Assembly: GCA_035326705.1 (NCBI GenBank)
Contig: DAOLES010000002.1
Location: 58,307-122,306 of the forward strand
From: Oligoflexia bacterium
Lineage (GTDB): Bacteria; Bdellovibrionota_G; JALEGL01
Length of the DNA: 64,000 bases
Direction: 5' to 3'
Shown here: piece by piece, positions 3,001 through 59,186 of the stretch
Layout: the number at the start of each line of letters is the position of its first letter
Position numbering within the stretch: position 1 is the stretch's first letter
Translations under genes and position numbers: made by a program
The notes under the pieces: generated by a model
Told to the model about the DNA's origin: nothing
Database searches by the model: none
Seen by the model: the letters and a program-made list of their open reading frames with translations, nothing else

Positions 3001-3459
3001 ATGTCACTTAAAAAAATAATGTTTGCCGTTGCAGGAATTGCAATTTTTTCTAACGCTTTTGCACATCCTTCAGGGACTTATAGGTTAAATCAAGATGATG
3101 CAGCCACATTAGAGATTAATGTACTCAGCGAAGTATGTTTTTTTGATATTGAAGGCTATGTGTCACATGACGGAGGCAATGATGGCCATAAAAGAGAATT
3201 CACTTTTTCTTCTGCAGCACAAGAATTAGGCTTTGAATCAGCAACCTACATTGAACTTTTTGAAGAATTAGATGAGTTTCAAAAAGCCGATGGACAAGAA
3301 GCATTAGAATATTACGCCAAAATAGAAAGCTATGACCCAGTTACAAGATCATGCGTGATTTCAAGCGATATGATTCCAGTGACAGATGTACAACAAGAAG
3401 ATGGTACTGTGGTTGAATATTTAGGCGATTATCTTCTAGAACTGATTAAACGCAAATAG
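3001..3459 (+). CDS. secreted hypothetical protein
   Basis: 152 aa, N-terminal signal peptide (AGIAIFSNAFA), acidic. A GGAGG-like SD (aggagga) precedes the ATG. Confidence 0.5.
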   Translation: MSLKKIMFAVAGIAIFSNAFAHPSGTYRLNQDDAATLEINVLSEVCFFDIEGYVSHDGGNDGHKREFTFSSAAQELGFESATYIELFEELDEFQKADGQEALEYYAKIESYDPVTRSCVISSDMIPVTDVQQEDGTVVEYLGDYLLELIKRK

Positions 3460-3540
3460 TAAGGGCTTATTTTCAATGACTTGAGGGGAGGCTATAACCT
3501 CCCTTAAGCTTTGGCATATGATTTAAAATAAAGTTAATAT

Positions 3541-4584
3541 ATGTCTTGCAACCATAATACATACAAATGTCTACTTGTTATTGTTACGTTTACACTACTG
3601 TTTGGATGTAGACCCAATCAGCGTGCCCCAAAAGATAATGTTGTTTCTGGGCGTAAAATAATTAAAAAACAAATTATTAAAGCAGAACAAGAACCTATTA
3701 TTCCTGAATCTAATCAGGAAAAAAATCAACTGTCAGTTCAACAAGCTGCGCAAGAAAATTCTGAAGGTGTTACTAAACCACAGCTTAACAATATTGAAGT
3801 GCTTTCTTATCAAGATAGAATCATTCAAAAAATTTTAAAAAACCATTCTATTGCAGAACTTAATGAGAACACAAGAGCATGGTTAAATTATGCAACAGTT
3901 CATGTTCCAGATCAGGTCTTTGATTTTGGGCTTCATTTTTATGCTGCAGCCAATGATGACCTCAATGAATACCATGCATCTAATATTGCTTTTGACTTGC
4001 AGTACGCTGTGCTGGAACCAATAGTCTCAAAAAAAGATGCAGCAAAAAAAATAAAATTAAAGATTAAATGGCATAAAAACTCAGTGTTGCATAGAGAAGT
4101 CTATTCTACCTTATGCCCAGAGCAAGTTTGCATCCCATCATTTTTTAAGTTGTCATACAATCTAGAAACAAAAATGCTCAAAGCAGATTATATTGAAGGC
4201 ATGTCAGGTCCTTTGAAATACGATTTTCAAAATGAGACGCATCATGTTTTTACTGCGGAGGATATGGGTGCCTTAAACTGTATTTTGAATATGGAAATAG
4301 ACAATCCAGATTCCTTTCTTTGGGAAAATCCTATTGAGCGCTATCTTGGAGCGGATTCTCAAGCAAGCATTGATATTGAACCCATGAAAGACCGTTTAGA
4401 TGGAATAACGGGGGCTACTGATTTGGTTAATGCGCCTTATGATAATTGTCCTGTTCCCAAAGGCGGTTTATGGACAACGGTTACTGTTTTTGCTCACGGC
4501 TATGAAATGTACAGACGTATTGATGATAGACAAATAGAAGACTGGCTTTTAAGCTTTGAACAGCCCATGGCACCGCATGTTTAG
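3541..4584 (+). CDS. putative lipoprotein, hypothetical
   Basis: 347 aa. Hydrophobic N-terminus ending in a LLFGC lipobox-like motif. Confidence 0.5.
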   Translation: MSCNHNTYKCLLVIVTFTLLFGCRPNQRAPKDNVVSGRKIIKKQIIKAEQEPIIPESNQEKNQLSVQQAAQENSEGVTKPQLNNIEVLSYQDRIIQKILKNHSIAELNENTRAWLNYATVHVPDQVFDFGLHFYAAANDDLNEYHASNIAFDLQYAVLEPIVSKKDAAKKIKLKIKWHKNSVLHREVYSTLCPEQVCIPSFFKLSYNLETKMLKADYIEGMSGPLKYDFQNETHHVFTAEDMGALNCILNMEIDNPDSFLWENPIERYLGADSQASIDIEPMKDRLDGITGATDLVNAPYDNCPVPKGGLWTTVTVFAHGYEMYRRIDDRQIEDWLLSFEQPMAPHV

Positions 4585-9717: not shown

Positions 9718-11151
9718 TTAAAACTTGAAATTGGTTCCTAAATATAAATCATTGACGGTGATTTTATCATTTTCATTAAGACTGTCTTCTTCTTTAAATA
9801 TTTGATATCGAGCGTGCAAAAGATTTTTTTTACTAAAATACCAAAATAAATTTCCGCCAAAACTGTACTCTTGTTCATTTTCTGTGGGTAAGCTGGTTAA
9901 GGTATTGTTTAAATAAACGTCACGTTCAGTTTTGACTCGATTAAAAAAACTTTCCAAGCGCAATTGACCGTCAGAAAAATCTTTACCCAATAAAAAATCA
10001 AATGCTACGTGGGCACTTTTATAATTGTTGATAAAATTAATTTGGGTTCTAAAATCAATGCTTGGCTGAAAAAGAGCATTGTTTTTATAACCTAAAAAAT
10101 AACGACTTCTATTCAGCGCATCAAAACTACGTTTTGTTAACTCTATTCCAGTAAAAATATTTTGTGATTTTAAAAAAGAATAGCTGATTTGATCTCTAAT
10201 TTGTGTGTAATAGGTGTCATTAAAAACATCACCGTTAACGTAGGTGTCAGGCGTAAATTGCCCTTGCCCAGGGATTTGTGAGCTGAGAGAAGCAGCGTAC
10301 TCTATATTTGACCAACGGGTGAAACTTAAGCTATTGTTTAAATGATCTGAAAAAATATAATAAAAATTTAATAGCAATTGATCCAAAGACTTTGGCACAA
10401 AAGAATAGTTGAGTAAGGCGGATAATGTTACCTTGCTATTTGGAATGTAAGTGCCGTGAGTAAAATTATATAAGCGATCCACTTGACCTTGATACAAAAG
10501 CGTATTTAAGGAGCTGCTAAAATTTAAAGTGTCATTTTTATGTTGGTAGTAACTGCCTAAGCTTATAAAATCAGTGCTGATAAACTGATTGTTTTGATTG
10601 CTTCCAATAAAGCCAAGGCTGGTTCTTGGATCTTGTCCAAGACCAGAGAAAAATCCAAGCTGACCCTCGTTGTTAAGATTTAGTATCAGTCTTGCACCAT
10701 CAAAACGCATACCACCGCTTTGAAAAACGATTTGCCTTCCCAGCCATAGGTCATGGCCTGAAAAAAAATTTTTATACTCTAATGATAATTCTGTAATGTC
10801 ATAACGATTTTTTTGATTGTAAGCTAAGGTGTAGTTGGTTTGATCTAAGTTAAAACGACTTTTACCAACAAAACGAAAGTTTGTTTGTTTTGAATCAAAG
10901 CTACTTTTTTGCTGATACAGTCTAACATTAAGCATGAGTAAACGATAACGGTCCTGTAAATAATCTTGACCAACTCCGTCAGTTTGTATTGCATTGTCTT
11001 GGTCTAATGTGTTTTGCGTAACTGACCAGTATCCTAAATTAAGATTTCCATTGAACTGCGTTTCAGATTGAGCATGAGTCAATGAAAGTGTCACCAGGAA
11101 ATAAAAAAGAACAAAAAAAAGTATATTCTGTTTTATTATTTTACAACTCAT
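9718..11151 (-). CDS. outer-membrane beta-barrel protein (putative porin of a porin-cytochrome complex)
   Basis: ~477 aa from MSCKIIK (the ORF track extends 6 codons further, to 11169). Signal peptide; alternating amphipathic beta-strand pattern rich in Y/F/N/S/T/G; C-terminal ...GTNFKF aromatic terminus. Immediately follows the 27-haem cytochrome gene. Confidence 0.55.
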   Translation of the reverse strand: MSCKIIKQNILFFVLFYFLVTLSLTHAQSETQFNGNLNLGYWSVTQNTLDQDNAIQTDGVGQDYLQDRYRLLMLNVRLYQQKSSFDSKQTNFRFVGKSRFNLDQTNYTLAYNQKNRYDITELSLEYKNFFSGHDLWLGRQIVFQSGGMRFDGARLILNLNNEGQLGFFSGLGQDPRTSLGFIGSNQNNQFISTDFISLGSYYQHKNDTLNFSSSLNTLLYQGQVDRLYNFTHGTYIPNSKVTLSALLNYSFVPKSLDQLLLNFYYIFSDHLNNSLSFTRWSNIEYAASLSSQIPGQGQFTPDTYVNGDVFNDTYYTQIRDQISYSFLKSQNIFTGIELTKRSFDALNRSRYFLGYKNNALFQPSIDFRTQINFINNYKSAHVAFDFLLGKDFSDGQLRLESFFNRVKTERDVYLNNTLTSLPTENEQEYSFGGNLFWYFSKKNLLHARYQIFKEEDSLNENDKITVNDLYLGTNFKF

Positions 11152-13184
11152 AGTTTGGAAGGTCTCCATCCATAGGTTCTATGGCAGTCCTTGCAGTTGG
11201 TGTTGCCACCAGCATGTTGCGGAATAATAACTGGCGAAGCAAAGTCTTTTAAATGACAAAAAGAACATTCATTGGGTAAGCCACCAAAAACACGATTTAC
11301 ATGGCATTGTTCACAAGAAAGAAAACGGTGGGCACCAGACAATTCAAAGCCGGTTTGAGCATGTCTAAACTGTGTGGGTAACCAAGTGTTTTGCCCATGA
11401 CAATCCTGACAACGTGTTGACAGGCTATTCATATGCGGATCTTGGTGACAGCTTTGGCATTGTGGTTTTGCAGACCTGATGGCCTGTTTGGGGCCGTGAC
11501 AGACTAAGCAGTTGAGTTGATTGTGAGCCCCTTTAAGTTCATATTCACCAAAATCATGGAAGTTGTTTTTCATGGCAAAGGTTGTGCTGTTGTGACAACG
11601 TTCACAGTTTTGTCCAAATGAGTTGTTATGAACATCATTGTGACATTCAGAACAACGTTTAAGACCAAGCTTGTATTTAAAATTTTGGTGGCATTGATTA
11701 CAATTGAGATATTTATGTTTGCCATCTAATTTAAAGTCAGAATTTTTATTATGATCAAAATTAATGTCATTGAAACGGGTTGGTGTATGACAATTTTCAC
11801 ATTGTTGTCCAAGAGCACCTTGGTGAAAGTCATTATGGCAAGATTTGCAATTTGTGGATAAGGGTCTAAATTTTCCCTGTTCATGACAGCTTTCGCAATT
11901 GACATATTTGTGTACGCCTTCTAGTTTAAACTGTGATTGCGTGTTGTGATCAAATTGCATTTCTGAAAAGCCAGCCGTACTATGGCAATTTGAACAAGCC
12001 TGTACACCAAATTGGTTTTTATGAATATCTTGATGACATGCATTGCATTTGGGTGATGTGCTTAGCCAACGGTACTTTCTATTTTGGTGACATTTTTCAC
12101 ATGCAACAACAGTGTGTTTTCCTGTAAGTTGATAGCGAGAATCTTTGTTGTGCAGAAAAGATAAAATTTGCCATCCTTCAGTTAAATGACAGTCATTGCA
12201 TTGTTTAACTTTCCAATTGATTTGAAACTCTTGACCATGCGGATTATTGTGACAATCACTGCATTGATTAAAATTTTTTATTTTACCAATAGTGTTGCCA
12301 TGACAGTTGTTACAAGTCACACTTCTATGTTGGCCCGTTAAAGGGAAACGGGTTTTTTGATGGTCAAAATCTTTAAAAGAAGCTTCAGTGCTGTTTAAGC
12401 TGCTTCCAGCTTTCCAGGAATCTGTACTATGACATTTTTGACAGTCAGAACCAAAGCTTCCCTTGTGAGGGTCACTATGACAGTTTGTGCAGCTTTTATA
12501 TCTTAGGGGGCTCCAAAGTTTTTTAGTGTGACAGCTATAGCATTGAACCTTTTGATGTGCGCCAGTGAGCGGAAAGTTTGTTTCCCGGTTATGATTAAAG
12601 CGTAGATGTTTAATTAGGCTAGTAAAATTATAAGAGTGGTGACAATCTTGGCAGCGTTTAAATCTTGGGTTTTTGCTTCTATGAACATCTTTGTGACAGC
12701 TTGAACAGTTGGATGAGGCGGCTAGATAGCTGGTTTTTTTTGTGGCTTTACCGCTAATCGCATGTTTGCGTTTTTGAGTGTGACATTGTTTGCATTTAAC
12801 GTCTTTGTGTTTTCCAGTGAGAGACCATCCAGTTTGTGAGTGACTAAATTGAAGACGTTCTAAACCCAAAAGTTCATAATCAAGGCCTTTATGTTCATTG
12901 TGACATTGATAACACTGAGCAGTTTGAACAGCGTGGTAACCAGAGTTGTTTTTAATTTTATTGGCAATATCCTTGTGGCAATCTAAGCATTTTTTATTGG
13001 GCAGGCCTTGAGCGGTTGTGTGACAAAGAGTGCAGTTCTTTACGCCAGATATTTCTTGGTGGGCTTTAGATAATGCGCCTGGGCTGATCCAAGTGTTAAA
13101 TTGGGTAAAACCAAGTTTGGGATAAAATAACAGTATCCAGCAAAAAAGATAAAGAGCATTAAAATTTTTGTTCTTAATTAGCAA
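11148..13184 (-). CDS. multihaem c-type cytochrome (27 CxxCH motifs)
   Basis: 678 aa with signal peptide. I counted 27 CxxCH haem-binding motifs in repeating tri-haem-like units with conserved distal His (c7/c3-like modules). Confidence 0.9.
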   Translation of the reverse strand: MLIKNKNFNALYLFCWILLFYPKLGFTQFNTWISPGALSKAHQEISGVKNCTLCHTTAQGLPNKKCLDCHKDIANKIKNNSGYHAVQTAQCYQCHNEHKGLDYELLGLERLQFSHSQTGWSLTGKHKDVKCKQCHTQKRKHAISGKATKKTSYLAASSNCSSCHKDVHRSKNPRFKRCQDCHHSYNFTSLIKHLRFNHNRETNFPLTGAHQKVQCYSCHTKKLWSPLRYKSCTNCHSDPHKGSFGSDCQKCHSTDSWKAGSSLNSTEASFKDFDHQKTRFPLTGQHRSVTCNNCHGNTIGKIKNFNQCSDCHNNPHGQEFQINWKVKQCNDCHLTEGWQILSFLHNKDSRYQLTGKHTVVACEKCHQNRKYRWLSTSPKCNACHQDIHKNQFGVQACSNCHSTAGFSEMQFDHNTQSQFKLEGVHKYVNCESCHEQGKFRPLSTNCKSCHNDFHQGALGQQCENCHTPTRFNDINFDHNKNSDFKLDGKHKYLNCNQCHQNFKYKLGLKRCSECHNDVHNNSFGQNCERCHNSTTFAMKNNFHDFGEYELKGAHNQLNCLVCHGPKQAIRSAKPQCQSCHQDPHMNSLSTRCQDCHGQNTWLPTQFRHAQTGFELSGAHRFLSCEQCHVNRVFGGLPNECSFCHLKDFASPVIIPQHAGGNTNCKDCHRTYGWRPSKL

Positions 13185-13251
13185 AATCTGAGTTCTATTT
13201 TAGGGGGATATTTGTGGGATAGAAAGTAAAAACACGATTTAGCCCATAAAA

Positions 13252-13848
13252 TTACTTTGCTTGAACTTTATCTTTTTTTACGTTTTTAGGTTTTTTATCT
13301 TTTGCAAAATCAAAATAATTCCAGTCTTGAGCATTGTGACATTCATCACAAGGCTTTTGATACTCTGGTTTTTTATGCGGGTTAGGGTGACAAGAGCTAC
13401 ACTGACTAGAGTTTTTAAGATAAGTAGTTAAATTGGTTTTTTTGCCAGTAATGGCATTGACACGCTTATCTGTGTGACACTCTTCACATTTTAAACGTTT
13501 ATGTTTGCCTTCTAAAGGCCAGCCAGTATCCTCATGTTTAAAACCAATTCGTTTTAAATCTCTTAAGTCATGTTTTTTACCACGGTGCTCACCATGACAT
13601 TGGTAACAGCGCTTGTCATCATTGCGGTAATGGTAACCACTCTTAGACTCTATTTTTTCTGCTATGTCAGTATGGCATTTTAAACAGGCTTTTTTACGAT
13701 TACCCGTATGACATTTGGTGCATTTAGAGAAGCCATCAAGATATTTAAAGTGCGCACTGCTTAAATCCCCCGGTGAAAAAAACTGGGGAAACACAGTATT
13801 GAGCATGGCGATGCTTAAAGCAAAGCTATAAATAAATAATTTACGCAC
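13252..13848 (-). CDS. hexahaem c-type cytochrome
   Basis: 198 aa, signal peptide, 6 CxxCH motifs. N-terminal ~150 aa are clearly paralogous to the N-terminus of the 27-haem protein; Lys-rich C-terminus. Confidence 0.85.
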   Translation of the reverse strand: MRKLFIYSFALSIAMLNTVFPQFFSPGDLSSAHFKYLDGFSKCTKCHTGNRKKACLKCHTDIAEKIESKSGYHYRNDDKRCYQCHGEHRGKKHDLRDLKRIGFKHEDTGWPLEGKHKRLKCEECHTDKRVNAITGKKTNLTTYLKNSSQCSSCHPNPHKKPEYQKPCDECHNAQDWNYFDFAKDKKPKNVKKDKVQAK

Positions 13849-17706: not shown

Positions 17707-19350
17707 ATGAATACATTATCATTGATGAGTGGTGTTACAGGCTTTGTTTTATTGCTTGGCGCAATTTTGGGTTATGGAATTACCAAGGACAGCAGCAATT
17801 GGTTTTTTAGAAGCCTGATGATTTTTTCTGTGTTGTTTTTGGTTTATTACTTGGTCATGAATATTAAATATTTAATGAAAAGTCCTGGGGGGATAAAAAA
17901 TGCATTTAGCGACAAAAAAAATCAAGGAAGATTGGGGAATGCTATTTTTATCCTCTTGGTTGTTTGTTGTTTGGCTGTTGTTAATGTTATTTCGACTAAA
18001 ACCATGTTTTGGAAAAAAGATTTTACCCAAAATGAAATTAACACCTTGTCTGATCAAACGCTAAGTACCTTAAAACAATTAGATAAACCGATTAAAATAC
18101 AAGTCTTTATGTTTGAAAATAACCAGCTAAAACCTGGGTTAAAAAATTTGTTGCAGTACTACCAAGATGCAAGTGATCAAGTAAAGGTAGAGTTCAAAGA
18201 TCCAGATGTTGCAAAGTTAGATGCTCAAAAAATTTCTGCGCAAGACGGAGACATTTTAATTGAATATGGTGAGCAGCAGCATATCATGCAAGGTAGTACA
18301 GAACAGGATATCACCCAAGCCATTTTAAAAGTAACGCGTAATGGGGAAACAATGGTGTGTTTTACTGAAGGTCATGGTGAGTTAAAGTTTGAAGGAGACC
18401 CACAAGATCCAAGAAGTTTAAGTTTTATTAAACCTGGCTTAAGCAATGAGGGTTTTAATGCTCGTACACTGAGTAATCTTTTGCCCAAAATAGATGAAGC
18501 TTGTTCGATAGTTATTATTGCTGGTCCACAAGTAGCGTTTACAGCCAATGAAGTCATTAGTCTCAATGAATATTTATTGTCTGGAGGTAAAGTACAGTTG
18601 CTGCTTGACCCCAATATCAGTACAGTTGTGGGTCAAAAAAATAAAGTTCGTTTGGTAGACAATGGTTTAAAAGACTTTTTACACTCTTGGGGAGTAGTTT
18701 TAGGAGATAATGTTATTTTAGAAAAGCGCTTGTCTTTACAAGGCATGCAAATTACCACTGAGCTTGTGGTTGCTAATTATGGACAGCATCCAATTGTTGA
18801 GCCACTTAAGCAAGGGATGAATGGTAACTTGAACACTGAATTTGACCAAGTGAGATCAGTGAATAAAGCACCTGGTTTTGAAGGAACCGTTGTTGAGTTA
18901 GCCTTTACCTCACCTGGAGAAAACAGCTGGGCCCAGTCAGATTTGCAAGCACTATTTATTGATAAAAAACCAGTCATTGAGGCAACAGATCAAGTGGGTA
19001 AAGTTAGTATTGGTCTTGTGTCTGAAAAAGATTTGGAAATAAAAGTAGAAGGGGACAATGACCCTGAAATCAAGCAAGCCCAACTGGTGGTATGGGGAGA
19101 TAGTGATTTTATTTCAAATGCTATGGTAGGTCAAAACCGATACAATTATGATTTGTTTATCAATGCTTTAAACTTTTTAAGAGGAGAAGTAGAGCAAATA
19201 ACAATTAGACCCAAACTGATTAAAAGCTCAGCCATAGAGCTATCCGCCACACAATCCATAGTCATTTTTTATTTATCTATTATCATATTGCCAATGCTAG
19301 TACTTTTATTTGGATTAAATTTATGGCTGTATAGAAAGAGATTAGGTTAA
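17707..19350 (+). CDS. GldG-like ABC-transporter-associated protein
   Basis: 547 aa, N- and C-terminal TM anchors around a large periplasmic domain. Follows the ABC-2 permease as in gldA/F/G-type loci. Confidence 0.55.
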   Translation: MNTLSLMSGVTGFVLLLGAILGYGITKDSSNWFFRSLMIFSVLFLVYYLVMNIKYLMKSPGGIKNAFSDKKNQGRLGNAIFILLVVCCLAVVNVISTKTMFWKKDFTQNEINTLSDQTLSTLKQLDKPIKIQVFMFENNQLKPGLKNLLQYYQDASDQVKVEFKDPDVAKLDAQKISAQDGDILIEYGEQQHIMQGSTEQDITQAILKVTRNGETMVCFTEGHGELKFEGDPQDPRSLSFIKPGLSNEGFNARTLSNLLPKIDEACSIVIIAGPQVAFTANEVISLNEYLLSGGKVQLLLDPNISTVVGQKNKVRLVDNGLKDFLHSWGVVLGDNVILEKRLSLQGMQITTELVVANYGQHPIVEPLKQGMNGNLNTEFDQVRSVNKAPGFEGTVVELAFTSPGENSWAQSDLQALFIDKKPVIEATDQVGKVSIGLVSEKDLEIKVEGDNDPEIKQAQLVVWGDSDFISNAMVGQNRYNYDLFINALNFLRGEVEQITIRPKLIKSSAIELSATQSIVIFYLSIIILPMLVLLFGLNLWLYRKRLG

Positions 19351-19519
19351 TATGCGAAATCAGGAACTGATTGAGCACACGGGGATAAAAAAACACAAAC
19401 GACGATTTTTGTTTTTTAAGGGGGCGTGAGCCCCCTTGAAAGAGGGAGCGAAGCGGGAGCCAATGCTAGTACTTTTATTTGGGTTAAATTTATGGCTGTA
19501 TAGAAAGAGATTGGGATAG
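19290..19519 (+). mobile_element. short two-hairpin element flanked by a 61-bp direct duplication of the upstream gene's 3' end
   Basis: Direct repeats 19290-19350 and 19459-19519 differ at 4 positions, all synonymous in the gene's frame. Between them lies a 108-bp insert containing a conserved ~87-nt core (19372-19458) with two hairpins. Confidence 0.5.
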
Positions 19520-19567
19520 ATGACCCATATTATTTGCCTGGTTCATATATGTATGGAGGATTAATCC

Positions 19568-20995
19568 GTGTTGAAAAAAATTGTAATTGCTTTTTTGGTT
19601 TTGATTGGGCTGATTGTTTTAAATTGGTGGAATGTTAAACAATCAGAAAAAAAAGAAGCTATCAAAGAACAGCAAGAGTTACTGCTAAATATAAAAAAAC
19701 AGAATATTACAAAAATAGCTGTATCAAATAGTCAGGGTCAATGGCAGTTGCTGAAAAGATCCCAAGAACCAGGTGGAAAGTACTCAGACGATTTAGCAGG
19801 TTTTGCCAGTGAATTTGATGTGCAGCCACAATGGTTACTTAAATGGGATGATAATACATACTTAGCAAATCAAAATCAGGTGGATGTTTTGTTGGATGAT
19901 TTAACACAAGCAAAAAAAGATAAGTACATTGCTAAAGGTAATGAAAAATTTTCTAGTTATGGCATTGTTAAAGAAAAGTCAGAGATAAAAATTTATGAGG
20001 GTGATTTACACGAGCTTAAAGAAACTTTGCTCACAGGGGATCTCAATACAATGGGTAGCTCGCTTTATGTGGCAAATGGCAATCAAGATATATTTTTAAG
20101 TGACCAAAGACTCAAAGACTCTCAAACTAAACAAACATCTGATTATATCCATAAAAATATGGTAGGTTTTGATGACCCGCAAAAAATTAGTTTAAAAAAT
20201 ATTTCTGGCACCTATGAGTTGATTAAAAAAAATGATCAGTGGCATATCTCTTCACCCATCAAAATTTTAGCGGACACATTGTTTGTTGAGGGTATGTTGA
20301 ATCATTTAAAAAATTTTGAAATAGATGAAGTTTTAGAAAATCGTGAATTTTCAAATTTAATTAAAGAAACCTTGCTTAAAAAGGCAGACTTCTTTTTTGA
20401 AATCACAGATAAAACAAAAGTTAAAAAGTTATATATCAATGAATCCGTGCCTAAAGGCGGGTCAAATACGTCTTACCATGCATTTATATATAGAGATGGA
20501 TTGCCCTTTGTGTTTAAGAAAAGCCCCATTAAACCCGGACACTTTTATTACACTTTAAGAGATTTAGCTGTGAAAAAAGTTTTTTCAGTCAATGCCAGTG
20601 AGGTTCAAAATTTTAAAATTATTCAAAACAATAAAACTAAAAATTTTGTTCAGAAAGATAATCAGTGGATTGAAGAAAAAAGTGTGGGTAGCAGTGAATT
20701 GAATGAGTTTGTTCCAAGTCATGCCTTATTTGCACTTAAGGCAAAAAAGTTTTTAAAACAAGATAAAAATAAAAACTTAACAGTTGACTATGCAATCAGT
20801 GTTATTGATAGCAATGGTCAAGAACAAACACTGCTAGTGTACAAAGAACCCTATAAACAAAACAACTTAAGCTTTACTCAGGTATACAGTTCAGCGCACA
20901 ATGCTCAATTGTTGTTTGACATAAAACAGCTTGATATTATATCTGATGCAGTAAACAATGTAATGAATGCGAATAAAAAGGAGAGTAAGAAATGA
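19568..20995 (+). CDS. DUF4340-like protein (commonly associated with GldG-type transporters)
   Basis: 475 aa, N-terminal TM anchor, Lys-rich. Sits downstream of the GldG-like gene; family assignment from memory. Confidence 0.45.
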   Translation: MLKKIVIAFLVLIGLIVLNWWNVKQSEKKEAIKEQQELLLNIKKQNITKIAVSNSQGQWQLLKRSQEPGGKYSDDLAGFASEFDVQPQWLLKWDDNTYLANQNQVDVLLDDLTQAKKDKYIAKGNEKFSSYGIVKEKSEIKIYEGDLHELKETLLTGDLNTMGSSLYVANGNQDIFLSDQRLKDSQTKQTSDYIHKNMVGFDDPQKISLKNISGTYELIKKNDQWHISSPIKILADTLFVEGMLNHLKNFEIDEVLENREFSNLIKETLLKKADFFFEITDKTKVKKLYINESVPKGGSNTSYHAFIYRDGLPFVFKKSPIKPGHFYYTLRDLAVKKVFSVNASEVQNFKIIQNNKTKNFVQKDNQWIEEKSVGSSELNEFVPSHALFALKAKKFLKQDKNKNLTVDYAISVIDSNGQEQTLLVYKEPYKQNNLSFTQVYSSAHNAQLLFDIKQLDIISDAVNNVMNANKKESKK

Positions 20996-57803: not shown

Positions 57804-58481
57804 TTGTTATATCCAAGCACTAAAGTTATGCAGACATACAACTACCAAATCATTCAAAATAAAAGTTACAATGAAATTCTTGCTTTGCAAAATCAAATTA
57901 GAGATGGAATCATCAATGAAGCTAGACCAGGAAAGATTCTGATGGTTGAACATCAACCGTGCATTACCTTTGGCAGAGCAGAAAAAGGTGAGAATTTAAA
58001 ACATAGTTTTTCTTGGTTAGAAAAACAGGGTTTTGAATTGGCACAAATTAACCGCGGTGGAAAAATCACCTACCATGGCCCCGGTCAATTGGTTTTATAC
58101 CCTATTGTCAATATGAAAGACTTTTCAATGGGCGTAAAGCAGTTTGTCTGTGGTTTAGAAAAAGTGATGATTCATGTGTGTCAGCAATATGGAGTTAAAG
58201 CGCAAAGAAAAGAAGGGTTTCCTGGGGCATGGGTCAATGAGCAAAAAAAACTGGGTTCTGTGGGGATTCATGTGCGTAAGATGGTGAGCATGCATGGCTT
58301 TTCATTGAATATTAATCCAAATTTAAGTCATTTTGATGTGATGTTACCCTGTGGTTTAGATGGCGTACAGATGACCTCCTTGGCCAAGGAAACAGGCAAT
58401 GACTTGGACTTTAAAACCTGTTTTGACCGGGCAAAAAGTGCTTTTGAAGAGGTTTTTTCTTGTAAGCTCACAAAGAGCTAG
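57804..58481 (+). CDS. lipB: octanoyltransferase (lipoate-protein ligase B)
   Basis: 225 aa. RGGKITYHGPGQLVLYPI block and catalytic Cys region (...LPCGL...). Confidence 0.85.
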   Translation: MLYPSTKVMQTYNYQIIQNKSYNEILALQNQIRDGIINEARPGKILMVEHQPCITFGRAEKGENLKHSFSWLEKQGFELAQINRGGKITYHGPGQLVLYPIVNMKDFSMGVKQFVCGLEKVMIHVCQQYGVKAQRKEGFPGAWVNEQKKLGSVGIHVRKMVSMHGFSLNINPNLSHFDVMLPCGLDGVQMTSLAKETGNDLDFKTCFDRAKSAFEEVFSCKLTKS

Positions 58482-58682
58482 TAATAGTAAATATTAGCTA
58501 AGTTATTGAGCTAAGGTAATATGTGAGGGCATTTTACATGACCGAGCACACAGGAGCGAAGAAACAAAAACGATGTTTTTGTTTCTGAGAGGGACGTGAG
58601 GGCCTCTTAAGAAAAAGAGCGTAGCGAGAGAAGAGGTTTTTTCTTGTAAGCTCACAAAGAGCTAGTGATAGTAAGTTTTAGC
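58446..58682 (+). mobile_element. second copy of the two-hairpin element, flanked by a 53-bp direct duplication of the lipB 3' end
   Basis: Direct repeats 58446-58498 and 58630-58682, 3 mismatches. The 131-bp insert has an ~87-nt core (58543-58629) that aligns with the core at 19372-19458. Confidence 0.5.
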
Positions 58683-58909
58683 GGAGTTATTAAGTTGACG
58701 TGTTATGAACACAAAAAAGTTTTCTACTGGCTCAAACAATGGGTAGCAAAGCTACCCAAACTCGCCATACGAAAATCTTTTTTATGCTCAAACATTTTGA
58801 AAATGAAAAACCGGAAGAGAGGCCATGTGCTGACTCTGACCTGGGTGGCGCCACGATAAACTGGCAAAAGAAGCTAAGGCTGCCATAGGAAAAGAAGGTT
58901 TATCCTGAA

Positions 58910-59186
58910 TTTTCCCCGGGTGGGATGAATTGGCCAAAAACGACGTTTTTTTAGACATTCTTGTGAGGAACGAACTAGAATGTTTTATGCAAAGCCGTTC
59001 AAGAAGGGGCGGGCCCTGCATAAGCAACTGTAAGACACAAGGTCTAACAGTTGCTAAAGATCCCCCTTAAAAGGAAACTAAAGAGGCTAGATTTTATATC
59101 GTGGCCGACTGGGTGGGATGAATTTGACGGAAACCGCGTTTTCGTCAAAGAAGGGGGGAAGATCCCCCCTTAAAAGGAAACAACAG
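58910..59186 (+). repeat. degenerate direct repeats upstream of hisS sharing motifs with the two-hairpin element
   Basis: GGGTGGGATGAAT at 58918 and 59110; AGATCCCCC(C)TTAAAAGGAAAC at 59058 and 59160; hairpin AAGGGGGG-aagat-CCCCCCTT (59151-59171); AAAAACGACGTTTTT palindrome (58936-58950). Confidence 0.4.

Follow-up and report, generated by a model that had tools for sequence, protein, structure and literature searches.

The end of a GldG-like gene is present twice in the DNA studied here, a 64-kb stretch of an uncultured Oligoflexia bacterium referred to as the window, and the locus raises the question of how a gene end came to be duplicated around a small structured insert and why the two copies have stayed so alike. 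The gene (17707-19350, + strand) was the third of its row, which according to Pfam comprised an ABC-ATPase, an ABC-2 permease, the GldG-like gene, and DUF4340 and DUF1844 genes, and the domains ABC_transp_aux and DUF7088 backed its assignment in the preliminary description of the sequence. The first repeat (DR1, 19290-19350, + strand) consisted of the last 20 codons of the gene (19 sense codons and TAA) and the one base before them, while the second, non-coding copy of the gene end (DR2, 19459-19519, + strand) was separated from it by a 108-nt insert, termed E1, located immediately 3' of the stop codon. The duplication was confirmed as described, with 57 of 61 nt identical and a distance of 169 nt from start to start. 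The four differences fell at repeat positions 25, 55, 58 and 61 and were, as had been observed, all synonymous or stop-to-stop, both copies translating to PMLVLLFGLNLWLYRKRLG followed by a stop. An 18-codon ORF was located within DR2 (ATG at 19463, TAG at 19517-19519) with GGGAG 3 nt upstream, and the next cistron was the DUF4340 gene (19568-20995, + strand), which had its own 48-nt leader after DR2. A 61-nt repeat with four differences is far above chance expectation, and the only other comparable short-range repeats in the window were the pair flanking E2, a paralog of E1.

Collapsed repeats can occur in MAG assemblies, and an assembly artefact had been named at the outset as the finding that would overturn the duplication. 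The Logan assembly of SRR2107183 (L001) contained an arrangement identical to that of the window, with the protein on 9 contigs, and the diverged genome L002 (SRR24874944), in which the GldG-like protein was ~84% identical, contained the same DR-E1-DR architecture with its own sequence. Percent identities quoted for relatives are amino-acid identities of the named marker (GldG-like, LipB or HisS). The duplication is not an assembly artefact because these independent assemblies and the diverged L002 relative share it.

E1 (19351-19459, + strand; ~108 nt) scored 122.7 bits, and its final G (19459) was common with DR2, leaving a one-G ambiguity at this boundary. The two hairpins originally named were present, and an additional 5' hairpin missing from that list was identified (P1, 19354-19376, + strand; GCGA-AAUCAG-GAA-CUGAUU-GAGC with tandem G.A/A.G beside the base), the stem sequence of which was wholly different in E2 with the pairing retained. 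P1 was followed by a conserved single-stranded linker (19377-19387, + strand) ending in ACACGGGGAUA within the family motif GAGCACAC, then by hairpin P2 (19388-19417, + strand) with an A-rich arm, a CGACG-type loop and a U-rich arm, the GC hairpin P3 (19418-19437, + strand; AAGGGGGC-GUGA-GCCCCCUU), the + strand loop of which is of the GNRA type, and a purine-rich, SD-like 3' tail (19438-19459, + strand; GAAAGAGGGAGCGAAGCGGGAG). This tail is predicted to be able to pair with the U-rich arm of P2 to give an alternative 'extended P3' fold, and in four of four copies two alternative folds were predicted to lie 0.3-6.5 kcal/mol apart. Folding of E1 relative to shuffled sequence gave z = -5.7 (z = -5.0 in a second computation) and z-scores across the family copies ranged from -2.4 to -6.0. 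The comparison of folding and covariation across copies proposed in the preliminary description identified three hairpins common to the copies with compensatory changes at 6 of 29 base pairs. The strand preference of the fold rests on three G.U pairs, present on the + strand versus none on the - strand, and on the loop type (GUGA and GCGA).

Terminal inverted repeats were absent from the family when the first 25 nt were compared with the reverse complement of the last 25 nt, the local score of 3-4 being equalled by 88-99% of shuffles. No sigma-70 promoter was predicted in E1 and no terminator-like site was found on either strand between 19150 and 19700; the U tract precedes the GC hairpin on the + strand, unlike an intrinsic terminator. 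None of the Rfam 15 covariance models matched the window at the gathering threshold, and at permissive E-values the best matches (E of at least 1) were to unrelated families. Two coding interpretations were rejected, namely a conserved ORF inside E1, which had 25 codons in the window copy and only 5 in L002, and in-frame read-through of the stop into DR2, which is at odds with the spacing of the repeats, since neither the 169 nt of the window nor the 167 nt of L002 is divisible by 3.

E1 belongs to a small family, not described before, whose members are discrete elements of ~106-108 nt with three hairpins. Its full-length paralog E2 (58524-58630, + strand) was 67% identical to E1, scored 106 bits with the E1 model and sits after lipB, where the flanking repeat of 78 nt (74-78 nt) was made up of a gene end and a spacer. 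The first copy of this repeat (58446-58523, + strand) comprised the last 36 nt of lipB (stop TAG at 58479-58481), a 39-nt spacer and ATG, the noncoding spacer constituting more than half of its length, while the second copy (58630-58707, + strand) was the same over its first 37 nt and 73% identical over its last 41 nt. The TATG at 58520-58523 was assignable to either E2 or its repeat. E1 and E2 started and finished at homologous positions, to the nucleotide, and both were in the gene-sense orientation. Junction microhomology was weak, being 1 nt at both 3' junctions and at most 4 nt (TATG) at the 5' junction of E2, and none was demonstrable at the 5' junction of E1. The right boundary of the E1 repeat was located directly after the gldG stop and that of the E2 repeat at the ATG 39 nt past the lipB stop. 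The full-length insertions number two, from one uncultured lineage, and the duplication-length and junction rules rest on them. Two diverged members were both located upstream of hisS: E4 (58917-59085, + strand; 18.6 bits) contained extra sequence, with an insertion of ~48 nt in the loop of the GC hairpin, and E3 (59088-59186, + strand; 30.8 and 72.6 bits in two model searches) abutted the hisS start codon (59187), its tail AAAAGGAAAC likely being the hisS ribosome-binding site. A reading of the sequence after the second E2 repeat as a decayed hisS 5' end was rejected, the local alignment being reached by 1114 of 2000 shuffles.

The four copies at two loci were identified in ~83 kb of this genome; no copies were found in 29 kb of the L003/L076 genome or in 22 kb of L081, and no further ones across ~150 kb of the three genomes. 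Exact and near-exact patterns for two 20-22-nt blocks of E1 detected no other copies in the window, and a core-only covariance model for distant members recovered only E1 to E4 and their orthologs. Pattern scans of viral contigs gave no matches and then one chance match, a scan of species-representative genomes gave a single chance match (Haloarcula), and the E1-type pattern gave none in metagenomes. The family pattern gave 67 metagenomic matches, all of which were rejected when 67 of 67 failed the covariance model, and the best (L072) was coding sequence. BLAST of the whole DR-E1-DR unit against plasmids and phages returned no match. Domains of transposases, integrases, recombinases or reverse transcriptases were absent from window ORFs of at least 150 aa (64 kb), as was a Y1-transposase domain (RAYT) from the window ORFs, and a literature search on long-duplication bacterial elements and on Bdellovibrionota repeats found no precedent. 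Across ~150 kb of the three genomes and the public collections there was no evidence of recent mobility, and no candidate enzyme emerged.

Relatives with empty sites were compared at both loci. The 3' end of gldG in relatives lacking the insert, a comparison that had been suggested from the start, was followed at the syntenic position by a cleanly empty site, the gap being 58 nt in L003 and 34 nt in L081, which is more distant, and the E2 site was empty in L076, in which the lipB-hisS gap was just 39 nt. Similarity of the 39-nt spacers in the E2 repeats to the L076 spacer was not significant, the equal length and the terminal ATG being the sole hint. The proposed association of an inserted structured element with a duplicated gene end was upheld by the empty-site relatives and by E2, which is likewise flanked. 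An E2 ortholog was located at the same place in L074, where most of the second repeat had been deleted, its diverged last 14 nt being retained, and E2 itself was conserved. DR2 of E1 ended in TAG in both the window and L002, while DR1 ended in TAA or TGA. On this evidence, E1 was inserted a single time, in an ancestor shared by this organism and the ~84%-identical relative (L002), and both full-length copies are ancient, single insertions.

Orthologous identity between genomes was 87% for E1 and 86% for E2, compared with 38-51% at four-fold sites (near saturation) and 53% in the adjacent spacer, and the element is evidently under strong purifying selection, almost unchanged since insertion. 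Seven lineage-specific substitutions were mirrored in both repeat copies of a genome versus one site that grouped the orthologs, the differences between repeats were concentrated at their right end, and DR2 of L002 had acquired non-synonymous changes (P to S, and LG to FK). Because of the seven mirrored substitutions and the non-synonymous changes in L002, the repeats are read as target duplications kept alike by concerted evolution, and we infer gene conversion between the 61-nt repeats from the substitution pattern. The all-synonymous differences in the window would then have a simpler account, in which the coding copy admits synonymous changes only and DR2 is periodically homogenised to it. 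The preliminary description had attributed these differences to coding selection on both copies, which is not supported in view of the non-synonymous changes in L002 and of the E2 repeat, over half of which is noncoding and the second copy of which is mostly deleted in L074. It had also proposed that the element carried its own gene end in an attP-like manner, or was acquired from a diverged relative. These proposals do not agree with repeats that bear each genome's own lineage-specific synonymous substitutions (7 versus 1 sites), with the two unrelated duplicated targets that flank E1 and E2 or with the lack of an integrase in the window.

With moderate confidence, E1 is considered to be a small insertion element with 60-80-nt target duplications that was later exapted as a folded part of an operon mRNA. 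What is documented above comprises the insertion with its target duplication, the family to which E1 belongs, the concerted evolution of the repeats, the constraint on the element's sequence, and its structure; how it was inserted and what it does as RNA are inferred. E1 entered the short spacer that follows the GldG-like gene, and the event itself duplicated 61 nt of the target to give the order U-DR-E-DR-D, in which the first repeat preserves the upstream gene and the second the original downstream context. Because the ends are defined, terminal inverted repeats are absent and the duplications are long and variable (61 and 74-78 nt), insertion may have occurred by copy-and-paste at widely staggered breaks or by switching of template from a discrete intermediate that was single-stranded (RNA or ssDNA), a pattern that does not suggest the work of a classical transposase or integrase. 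Short-tract gene conversion would since then have kept the left ~50 nt of the repeats alike in each genome. Purifying selection has retained the element, most probably in the form of a folded segment of the gene-sense polycistronic mRNA, in which the U-rich strand is predicted to pair with either the upstream A-rich strand or the downstream purine-rich SD-like tail.

A specific version of this insertion step is retroposition, whereby E1 and E2 would be reverse-transcribed copies of a small structured RNA, a bacterial SINE-like element. They could have arisen through target-primed reverse transcription, or the RT could have jumped from its template to a 3' fragment of an mRNA, with Campbell-type integration of the circularised cDNA to follow, and both routes would give long, variable duplications. 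Retroposition is consistent with the discrete unit ends common to E1 and E2, the variation in duplication length (61 versus 74-78 nt), the absence of terminal inverted repeats, the gene-sense orientation of both copies with an RNA-like fold of the + strand (GNRA loop, G.U pairs) and the right-hand repeat boundaries at translation landmarks (the gldG stop and the ATG 39 nt after the lipB stop). We nevertheless regard it as unlikely given that no reverse transcriptase was found in the 64-kb window, that no master gene was identified, that a poly-A or other priming signature was absent, that there were two events only, and that the copies are ancient and under host-level constraint, unlike the expectation for retropseudogenes. 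The fuller proposition that these are SINE-like retroposons of a ~108-nt RNA, inserted with 60-80-nt duplications that spared both genes and then exapted as bistable operon-mRNA switches, is a doubtful one, although if true it would represent a mode of retroposition not so far known from bacteria. Replication template switching (FoSTeS/MMBIR-like), in which a stalled nascent strand would have copied a family member present elsewhere in the genome and returned 61-78 nt behind its departure, gives an insertion that is templated and flanked by a duplication, with no need for a dedicated enzyme of the element's own. Variable duplication lengths, the one G common at both 3' junctions, the at most 4 nt (TATG) at the 5' junction of E2, the lack of a mobility enzyme nearby and the very low copy number of the family are in its favor, but the termini of E1 and E2 are homologous to the nucleotide, which is unexpected for random switch points, and the microhomologies are minimal, making this a rather improbable route.

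Other readings concern the repeats themselves. DR2 of E1 could be functional, the SD-like tail of E1 (GGGAG) lying 3 nt before the ATG in DR2 and so creating a gene of 18 codons, whose product would copy the transmembrane helix at the GldG C-terminus (beginning MLVLLFGLNLWLYRKR), or more widely the family could consist of portable 5'-UTR or translation-control cassettes, with repeat similarity due to selection. The ORF and its TAG stop were intact in both genomes despite differing last two sense codons, the E3 tail is an apparent hisS ribosome-binding site and the predicted bistable fold could mask or reveal the purine-rich tail; however, no comparable ORF is present in the second E2 repeat, most of which is missing from L074 where E2 is still conserved, homogenisation to the coding copy would by itself keep the ORF intact, and the SD-ATG spacing is short, so that a functional DR2 has a low probability. 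Still less probable, and already contradicted, is the remnant or miniature of a site-specific integrative element with its own gene 3' end (attL/attR), or a segment that recombination brought in from a diverged relative. The insert does lie between direct repeats of a gene 3' end and the differences in the window are all synonymous, but the repeats follow each genome's own substitutions at the seven mirrored sites, the target duplicated around E2 is another one and takes in non-coding spacer, both paralogs have the insert as a whole, conserved 108-nt unit and not as a deletion scar, no integrase was found in the window and DR2 of L002 contains non-synonymous changes. A template and variable repeat pair like that of a diversity-generating retroelement (DGR), taken jointly with the assembly artefact excluded above, is accorded a negligible probability. 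The gene 3'-end repeat adjoins a GC hairpin with a 4-nt loop and superficially resembles a DGR target site, but the differences are neither adenine-specific nor at first and second codon positions (third positions or stop in the window, mixed in L002 and E2), no RT or accessory gene is present among neighbors that encode ABC-transporter, DUF4340 and DUF1844 proteins, and the repeated segment is a transmembrane anchor with no ligand-binding fold.

The insertion element reading was compared with known systems. The defining features of small non-autonomous elements in bacteria are inverted repeats at the termini and a target duplication only a few bases long. MITEs and the Correia/NEMIS, RUP and ERIC elements are, like the E family, short (~100 nt), non-coding, structured and flanked by a target duplication, and MITE-type elements share with it an intergenic or intercistronic location, presence/absence polymorphism between relatives and co-transcription with genes, which for the E family is predicted. 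The E family differs from MITEs in that it has no terminal inverted repeats, which in a MITE match those of a parent insertion sequence, and in that its duplications measure 61-78 nt, those of MITEs being of fixed length and typically 2-10 nt. Its copy number was very low in the ~150 kb scanned, no related transposase was seen and its orthologs are under strong purifying selection. REP/BIME/REPIN sequences are likewise extragenic hairpin units, typically found in operons between cistrons or in 3' untranslated stretches, where they may influence how stable the mRNA is or how it is processed, and REP elements are mobilised by the REP-associated tyrosine transposase, RAYT. In contrast to their highly repeated, imperfect palindrome of ~35 nt (~20-40 nt), the E unit is ~108 nt with three different hairpins and conserved single-stranded motifs, has a long flanking target duplication, is not abundant and has no RAYT seen.

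Site-specific integrative elements that enter genes at their 3' ends (tRNA, tmRNA and some protein genes) and restore the gene with a copy of their own resemble E1 in that direct repeats of the gene end flank the insert and leave the gene intact, although E1 is 108 nt with no integrase, its repeats follow the host lineage and its paralogs lie at unrelated targets. Eukaryotic SINEs and processed retrocopies have in common with the E family a discrete unit of small-RNA size, no terminal inverted repeats and variable, possibly long duplications, while the E family showed neither a poly-A tail nor an internal promoter, and the 64-kb window encoded no reverse transcriptase. No system of SINE-like retroposition by target-primed reverse transcription is known to be established in bacteria, and the literature search likewise found none. 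CRISPR Cas1-Cas2 and casposons also insert at nicks tens of nt apart and duplicate the sequence between, but the length of their duplications is repeat-fixed (~24-48 nt, or ~14-15 nt for casposons), unlike the E family, and the E loci have no array, leader or cas genes.

Only two full-length insertions, both from one uncultured lineage, limit how much the case can bear. Within these bounds, the locus would be a clean natural case of concerted evolution between 61-nt repeats 169 nt apart, and the element provides an RNA motif of three hairpins that is new and under strong constraint, with two predicted folds in competition and a testable function. Such an insertion can hit the last codons of a gene or a 39-nt spacer and leave both neighbors undamaged. 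A discrete family with no terminal inverted repeats and with 61-78-nt duplications suggests an insertion route, by widely staggered breaks, template switching or an RNA or ssDNA intermediate, that lies outside the catalogued bacterial systems compared here.

The GldG-like gene, so named because its 547-aa product carries ABC_transp_aux and DUF7088 domains, occupied positions 17707-19350 of the + strand within a co-oriented row encoding an ABC ATPase, an ABC-2 permease, the GldG-like protein, DUF4340 and DUF1844. Sequence reading (19100-19800) and a repeat finder confirmed the repeat of the gene end reported in the preliminary description, with the first copy (DR1, 19290-19350, +) closing the open reading frame and the second (DR2, 19459-19519, +) matching it at 57 of 61 nt across a 108-nt insert, E1; the G at 19459 was assignable to either the insert or DR2. 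Both copies in the window were translated alike as PMLVLLFGLNLWLYRKRLG followed by a stop, and the four differences were therefore synonymous or stop-to-stop, as previously noted. The two hairpins already named were present in E1 together with a third near the 5' end, and folding was far stronger than for shuffled sequence (z = -5.7). The arrangement recurred in the independent Logan assembly L001 and the GldG-like protein was found on nine contigs, which excluded the assembly artefact raised earlier as a possible refutation, and the relatives strengthened the case. A 25-codon ORF (19352-19429; MRNQELIEHTGIKKHKRRFLFFKGA and a stop) opens at the 5' ATG of E1; it was shortened to 5 codons in the relative L002 and, being unconserved, is probably meaningless.

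Three close relatives of the GldG-like protein (83-84% amino-acid identity) and one distant relative (42%) were retrieved with DNA. In L002 (SRR24874944) the same insert was located at exactly the same site and was flanked by its own repeat pair. In relatives without the insert, the GldG-like and DUF4340 genes lay 58 nt apart in L003 (GCA_022763185.1) and 34 nt apart in the distant, fully syntenic L081, while L004 was uninformative on the insert as its contig ended 7 nt past the GldG-like stop codon. A short gap is thus ancestral, and a 169-nt block comprising the insert and one repeat copy was gained on the branch shared by the window genome and L002. Distances among the three close genomes were nearly equal, those of the window and L002 being slightly closer on most genes.

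A scan for short-range repeats identified one other case in the window, a 78-nt pair (58446-58523 and 58630-58707, 86% identical) flanking a 106-nt insert, E2, that was alignable to E1 over its full length at 67% identity. Both carried the motif GAGCACAC, a GC hairpin centred on CGUGAG, a CGAYG-looped hairpin of A-rich and U-rich arms and the 3' end GAGCG(A/U)AGCG(G/A)GAG. A covariance model of E1, the E1 ortholog in L002 and E2 scored these three at 106-123 bits, while a diverged copy, E3 (59088-59186), scored 30.8 bits, or 72.6 bits with a core-only model. The 3' limit of E3 was exactly the hisS start codon and a more diverged member, E4, was located just upstream. The association of family copies with duplicated gene ends extended to E2, as its DR1 took in the terminal 36 nt of lipB, then 39 nt of spacer and ATG. 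In L076, which belongs to the L003 genome, only a 39-nt spacer lay between lipB and hisS, and the whole block of approximately 700 nt holding E2, E4 and E3 was thus missing. Further copies were not found in the approximately 150 kb sampled from the three genomes and L081, Rfam gave no match, no similar sequence was found in plasmids and phages, and pattern matches in viral contigs, representative genomes and JGI metagenomes occurred only by chance and all failed the model.

Several observations were made around these loci. In both E2 repeats (58482-58523, 58666-58707) exactly 39 nt separated the lipB stop and the terminal ATG, as they did the lipB stop and the hisS ATG in the empty-site genome (L076 9962-10003). 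The equal lengths suggest that the duplication ended on the right at what was then the start codon of hisS, a point on which the spacer sequences, having diverged too far, are uninformative. E4 and E3 (58917-59186) formed a diverged tandem pair ahead of hisS, with an insertion of approximately 48 nt in the GC-hairpin loop of E4. The genome of L002 featured one unit joining an E4-type loop insertion to an E3-type hisS-proximal tail (L077 1-47), as if the two counterparts had recombined, and contigs L074 and L077 both broke inside this unit, which suggests that it is repeated in that genome. Between DR2 of E2 and E4 was a non-coding region of approximately 210 nt (58708-58917, orthologous to L074 6801-7006) that showed approximately 88% conservation across the two genomes in spite of indels, had no Rfam match and included a hairpin with a fully compensated stem (GGGTAGC-AAA-GCTACCC vs GGGTCGC-TAT-GCGACCC). 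Its counterpart was missing from L076, where lipB and hisS were 39 nt apart, and it may be a small RNA or belong to an extended hisS leader.

Elsewhere in the L003 genome, L076 13040-13144 between aspS and rnhB comprised two tandem hairpins and then a purine-rich stretch just ahead of the rnhB start, a family-like layout that matched the E1 model weakly (14 bits, E about 0.04) with unconvincing sequence kinship. An isolated GC-rich hairpin (GGGGAGG-CTATAA-CCTCCC, 3486-3503) within the 81 nt that separate ORFs 3001-3459 and 3541-4584 had no T tract after it and matched no family model. Internal 42-nt repeats were detected in large multihaem cytochrome genes (Cytochrome_C7/c3 domains; 11148-13848, - strand), which adjoin a cNMP-binding/4Fe-4S protein and were kept in all relatives including L081.

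The E1 repeats differed at 4 and 7 positions within genomes and at 11-14 between them. At seven positions (4, 8, 10, 13, 16, 19 and 46) both copies of one genome differed from both of the other and only one position grouped by ortholog, while only 38% of four-fold degenerate gldG sites agreed between the two genomes. A non-coding DR2 evolving independently cannot produce this mirrored pattern. Differences were concentrated at the right-hand end in the window (25, 55, 58, 61) and in L002 (2, 26, 55-57, 60, 61), and the E2 repeats had none in the first 37 nt and 11 in the last 41 nt. Short-tract gene conversion, judged from this pattern, fits the clustering. Conversion would continue where the coding copy evolves slowly and die away where both copies drift freely; DR1 would tolerate synonymous changes only and DR2 would be overwritten from it periodically, which would account for the all-synonymous differences in the window. 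DR2 of L002 carried P to S and LG to FK changes and is therefore not under the coding constraint of DR1.

E1 and E2 are paralogous, and the upstream sequences duplicated around them were unrelated to each other, one being largely non-coding; the target rather than the element therefore supplied the duplicated sequence. The preliminary description is partly supported, in that a structured element was inserted and a gene end duplicated with it, and fails both in its cause, a gene end borne by the element or acquired, and in its claim of coding selection on both copies. In L074, from the L002 genome (LipB 92% identical), E2 occurred at the same position with its 3' end truncated and fused to GTTGACGTGTTATG, exactly the diverged last 14 nt of DR2 of the window E2, and then to conserved downstream sequence. 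The retention of GTTGACGTGTTATG places the E2 duplication and its right-end divergence before the split of the two genomes, with approximately 68 nt lost later in L074. DR2 of E1 ended in TAG in both genomes while DR1 ended in TAA in the window and TGA in L002. Both insertions are old.

Orthologous elements were 87% (E1) and 86% (E2) identical, relative to 78% for gldG nucleotides, 38-51% for four-fold sites and 53% for the spacer after DR2. E1 grouped with E1 and E2 with E2, so the cause is purifying selection on each locus and not homogenisation among copies. A hand-made alignment holding the first hairpin, P1, in register gave 29 pairs in three hairpins, six of them changed on both sides (P1 AAUCAG/CUGAUU in E1 vs GGGCAU/AUGACC in E2), and the second hairpin, P2, was compensated at five further pairs in E3. 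Three G.U pairs on the + strand, equivalent to C.A mismatches on the opposite strand, and a GNRA loop (GUGA or GCGA) in the third hairpin, P3, modestly favour a gene-sense RNA or top-strand single-stranded DNA. Every copy had a more stable fold than its shuffled counterparts (z from -2.4 to -6.0), and in each of the four full-length copies two mutually exclusive folds were predicted 0.3-6.5 kcal/mol apart, the U-rich strand pairing either with the upstream A-rich strand (P2) or with the purine-rich, Shine-Dalgarno-like tail, which lengthens P3 to some 20 pairs. E1 had neither a sigma-70-like promoter nor an intrinsic terminator. The hisS ribosome-binding site is apparently the E3 tail, AAAAGGAAAC, and the E1 tail ends in GGGAG 3 nt ahead of an ATG opening an 18-codon ORF in DR2, which hints at a translation-related role in cis.

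Three routes would give the same order of upstream sequence, repeat, element, repeat and downstream sequence. With strand breaks at two points 61-78 nt apart, a discrete unit could be attached to both and the gaps filled in; a nascent strand could copy the unit and resume 61-78 nt behind; or a small circle of unit and target copy could recombine with the chromosome. E1 and E2 had homologous unit ends down to the single nucleotide, in favour of a discrete intermediate, and an RNA or single-stranded DNA copy-and-paste route was ranked above random replication template switching. At the 3' junction of both, the last G of the element was the first G of the repeat; at the 5' junction TATG was shared for E2 and no overlap was demonstrable for E1. 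The element lacked terminal inverted repeats, and the 64-kb window encoded no transposase, integrase or reverse transcriptase. The interpretation commits only to a discrete single unit inserted with a long target duplication of variable length. As the duplication is long, the end of the upstream gene (DR1) and the leader of the downstream gene (DR2) both survive insertion.

The case draws on two full-length insertions from a single uncultured lineage, and the unusual features are the long target duplications, strong constraint and predicted bistable fold. The attL/attR ends of an integrative element were rejected as there was no integrase and the repeats track host lineage, template/variable repeats of a diversity-generating retroelement as the differences were not adenine-specific and there was no reverse transcriptase, and an intrinsic terminator and every Rfam family as their defining tests failed. 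The element falls outside the definition of MITEs, lacking terminal inverted repeats and a short fixed-length duplication, and differs from REP/REPIN sequences in its unit, low copy number and absence of a RAYT (REP-associated tyrosine transposase). In eukaryotes, target-primed reverse transcription is typically recognised by duplications that are long and variable and surround a unit lacking inverted repeats, and the element is alike in both respects. No bacterial precedent for a long-duplication element was found in the literature searched. This likeness is a lead rather than membership, and the element behaves as an exapted small insertion element of the non-autonomous type.
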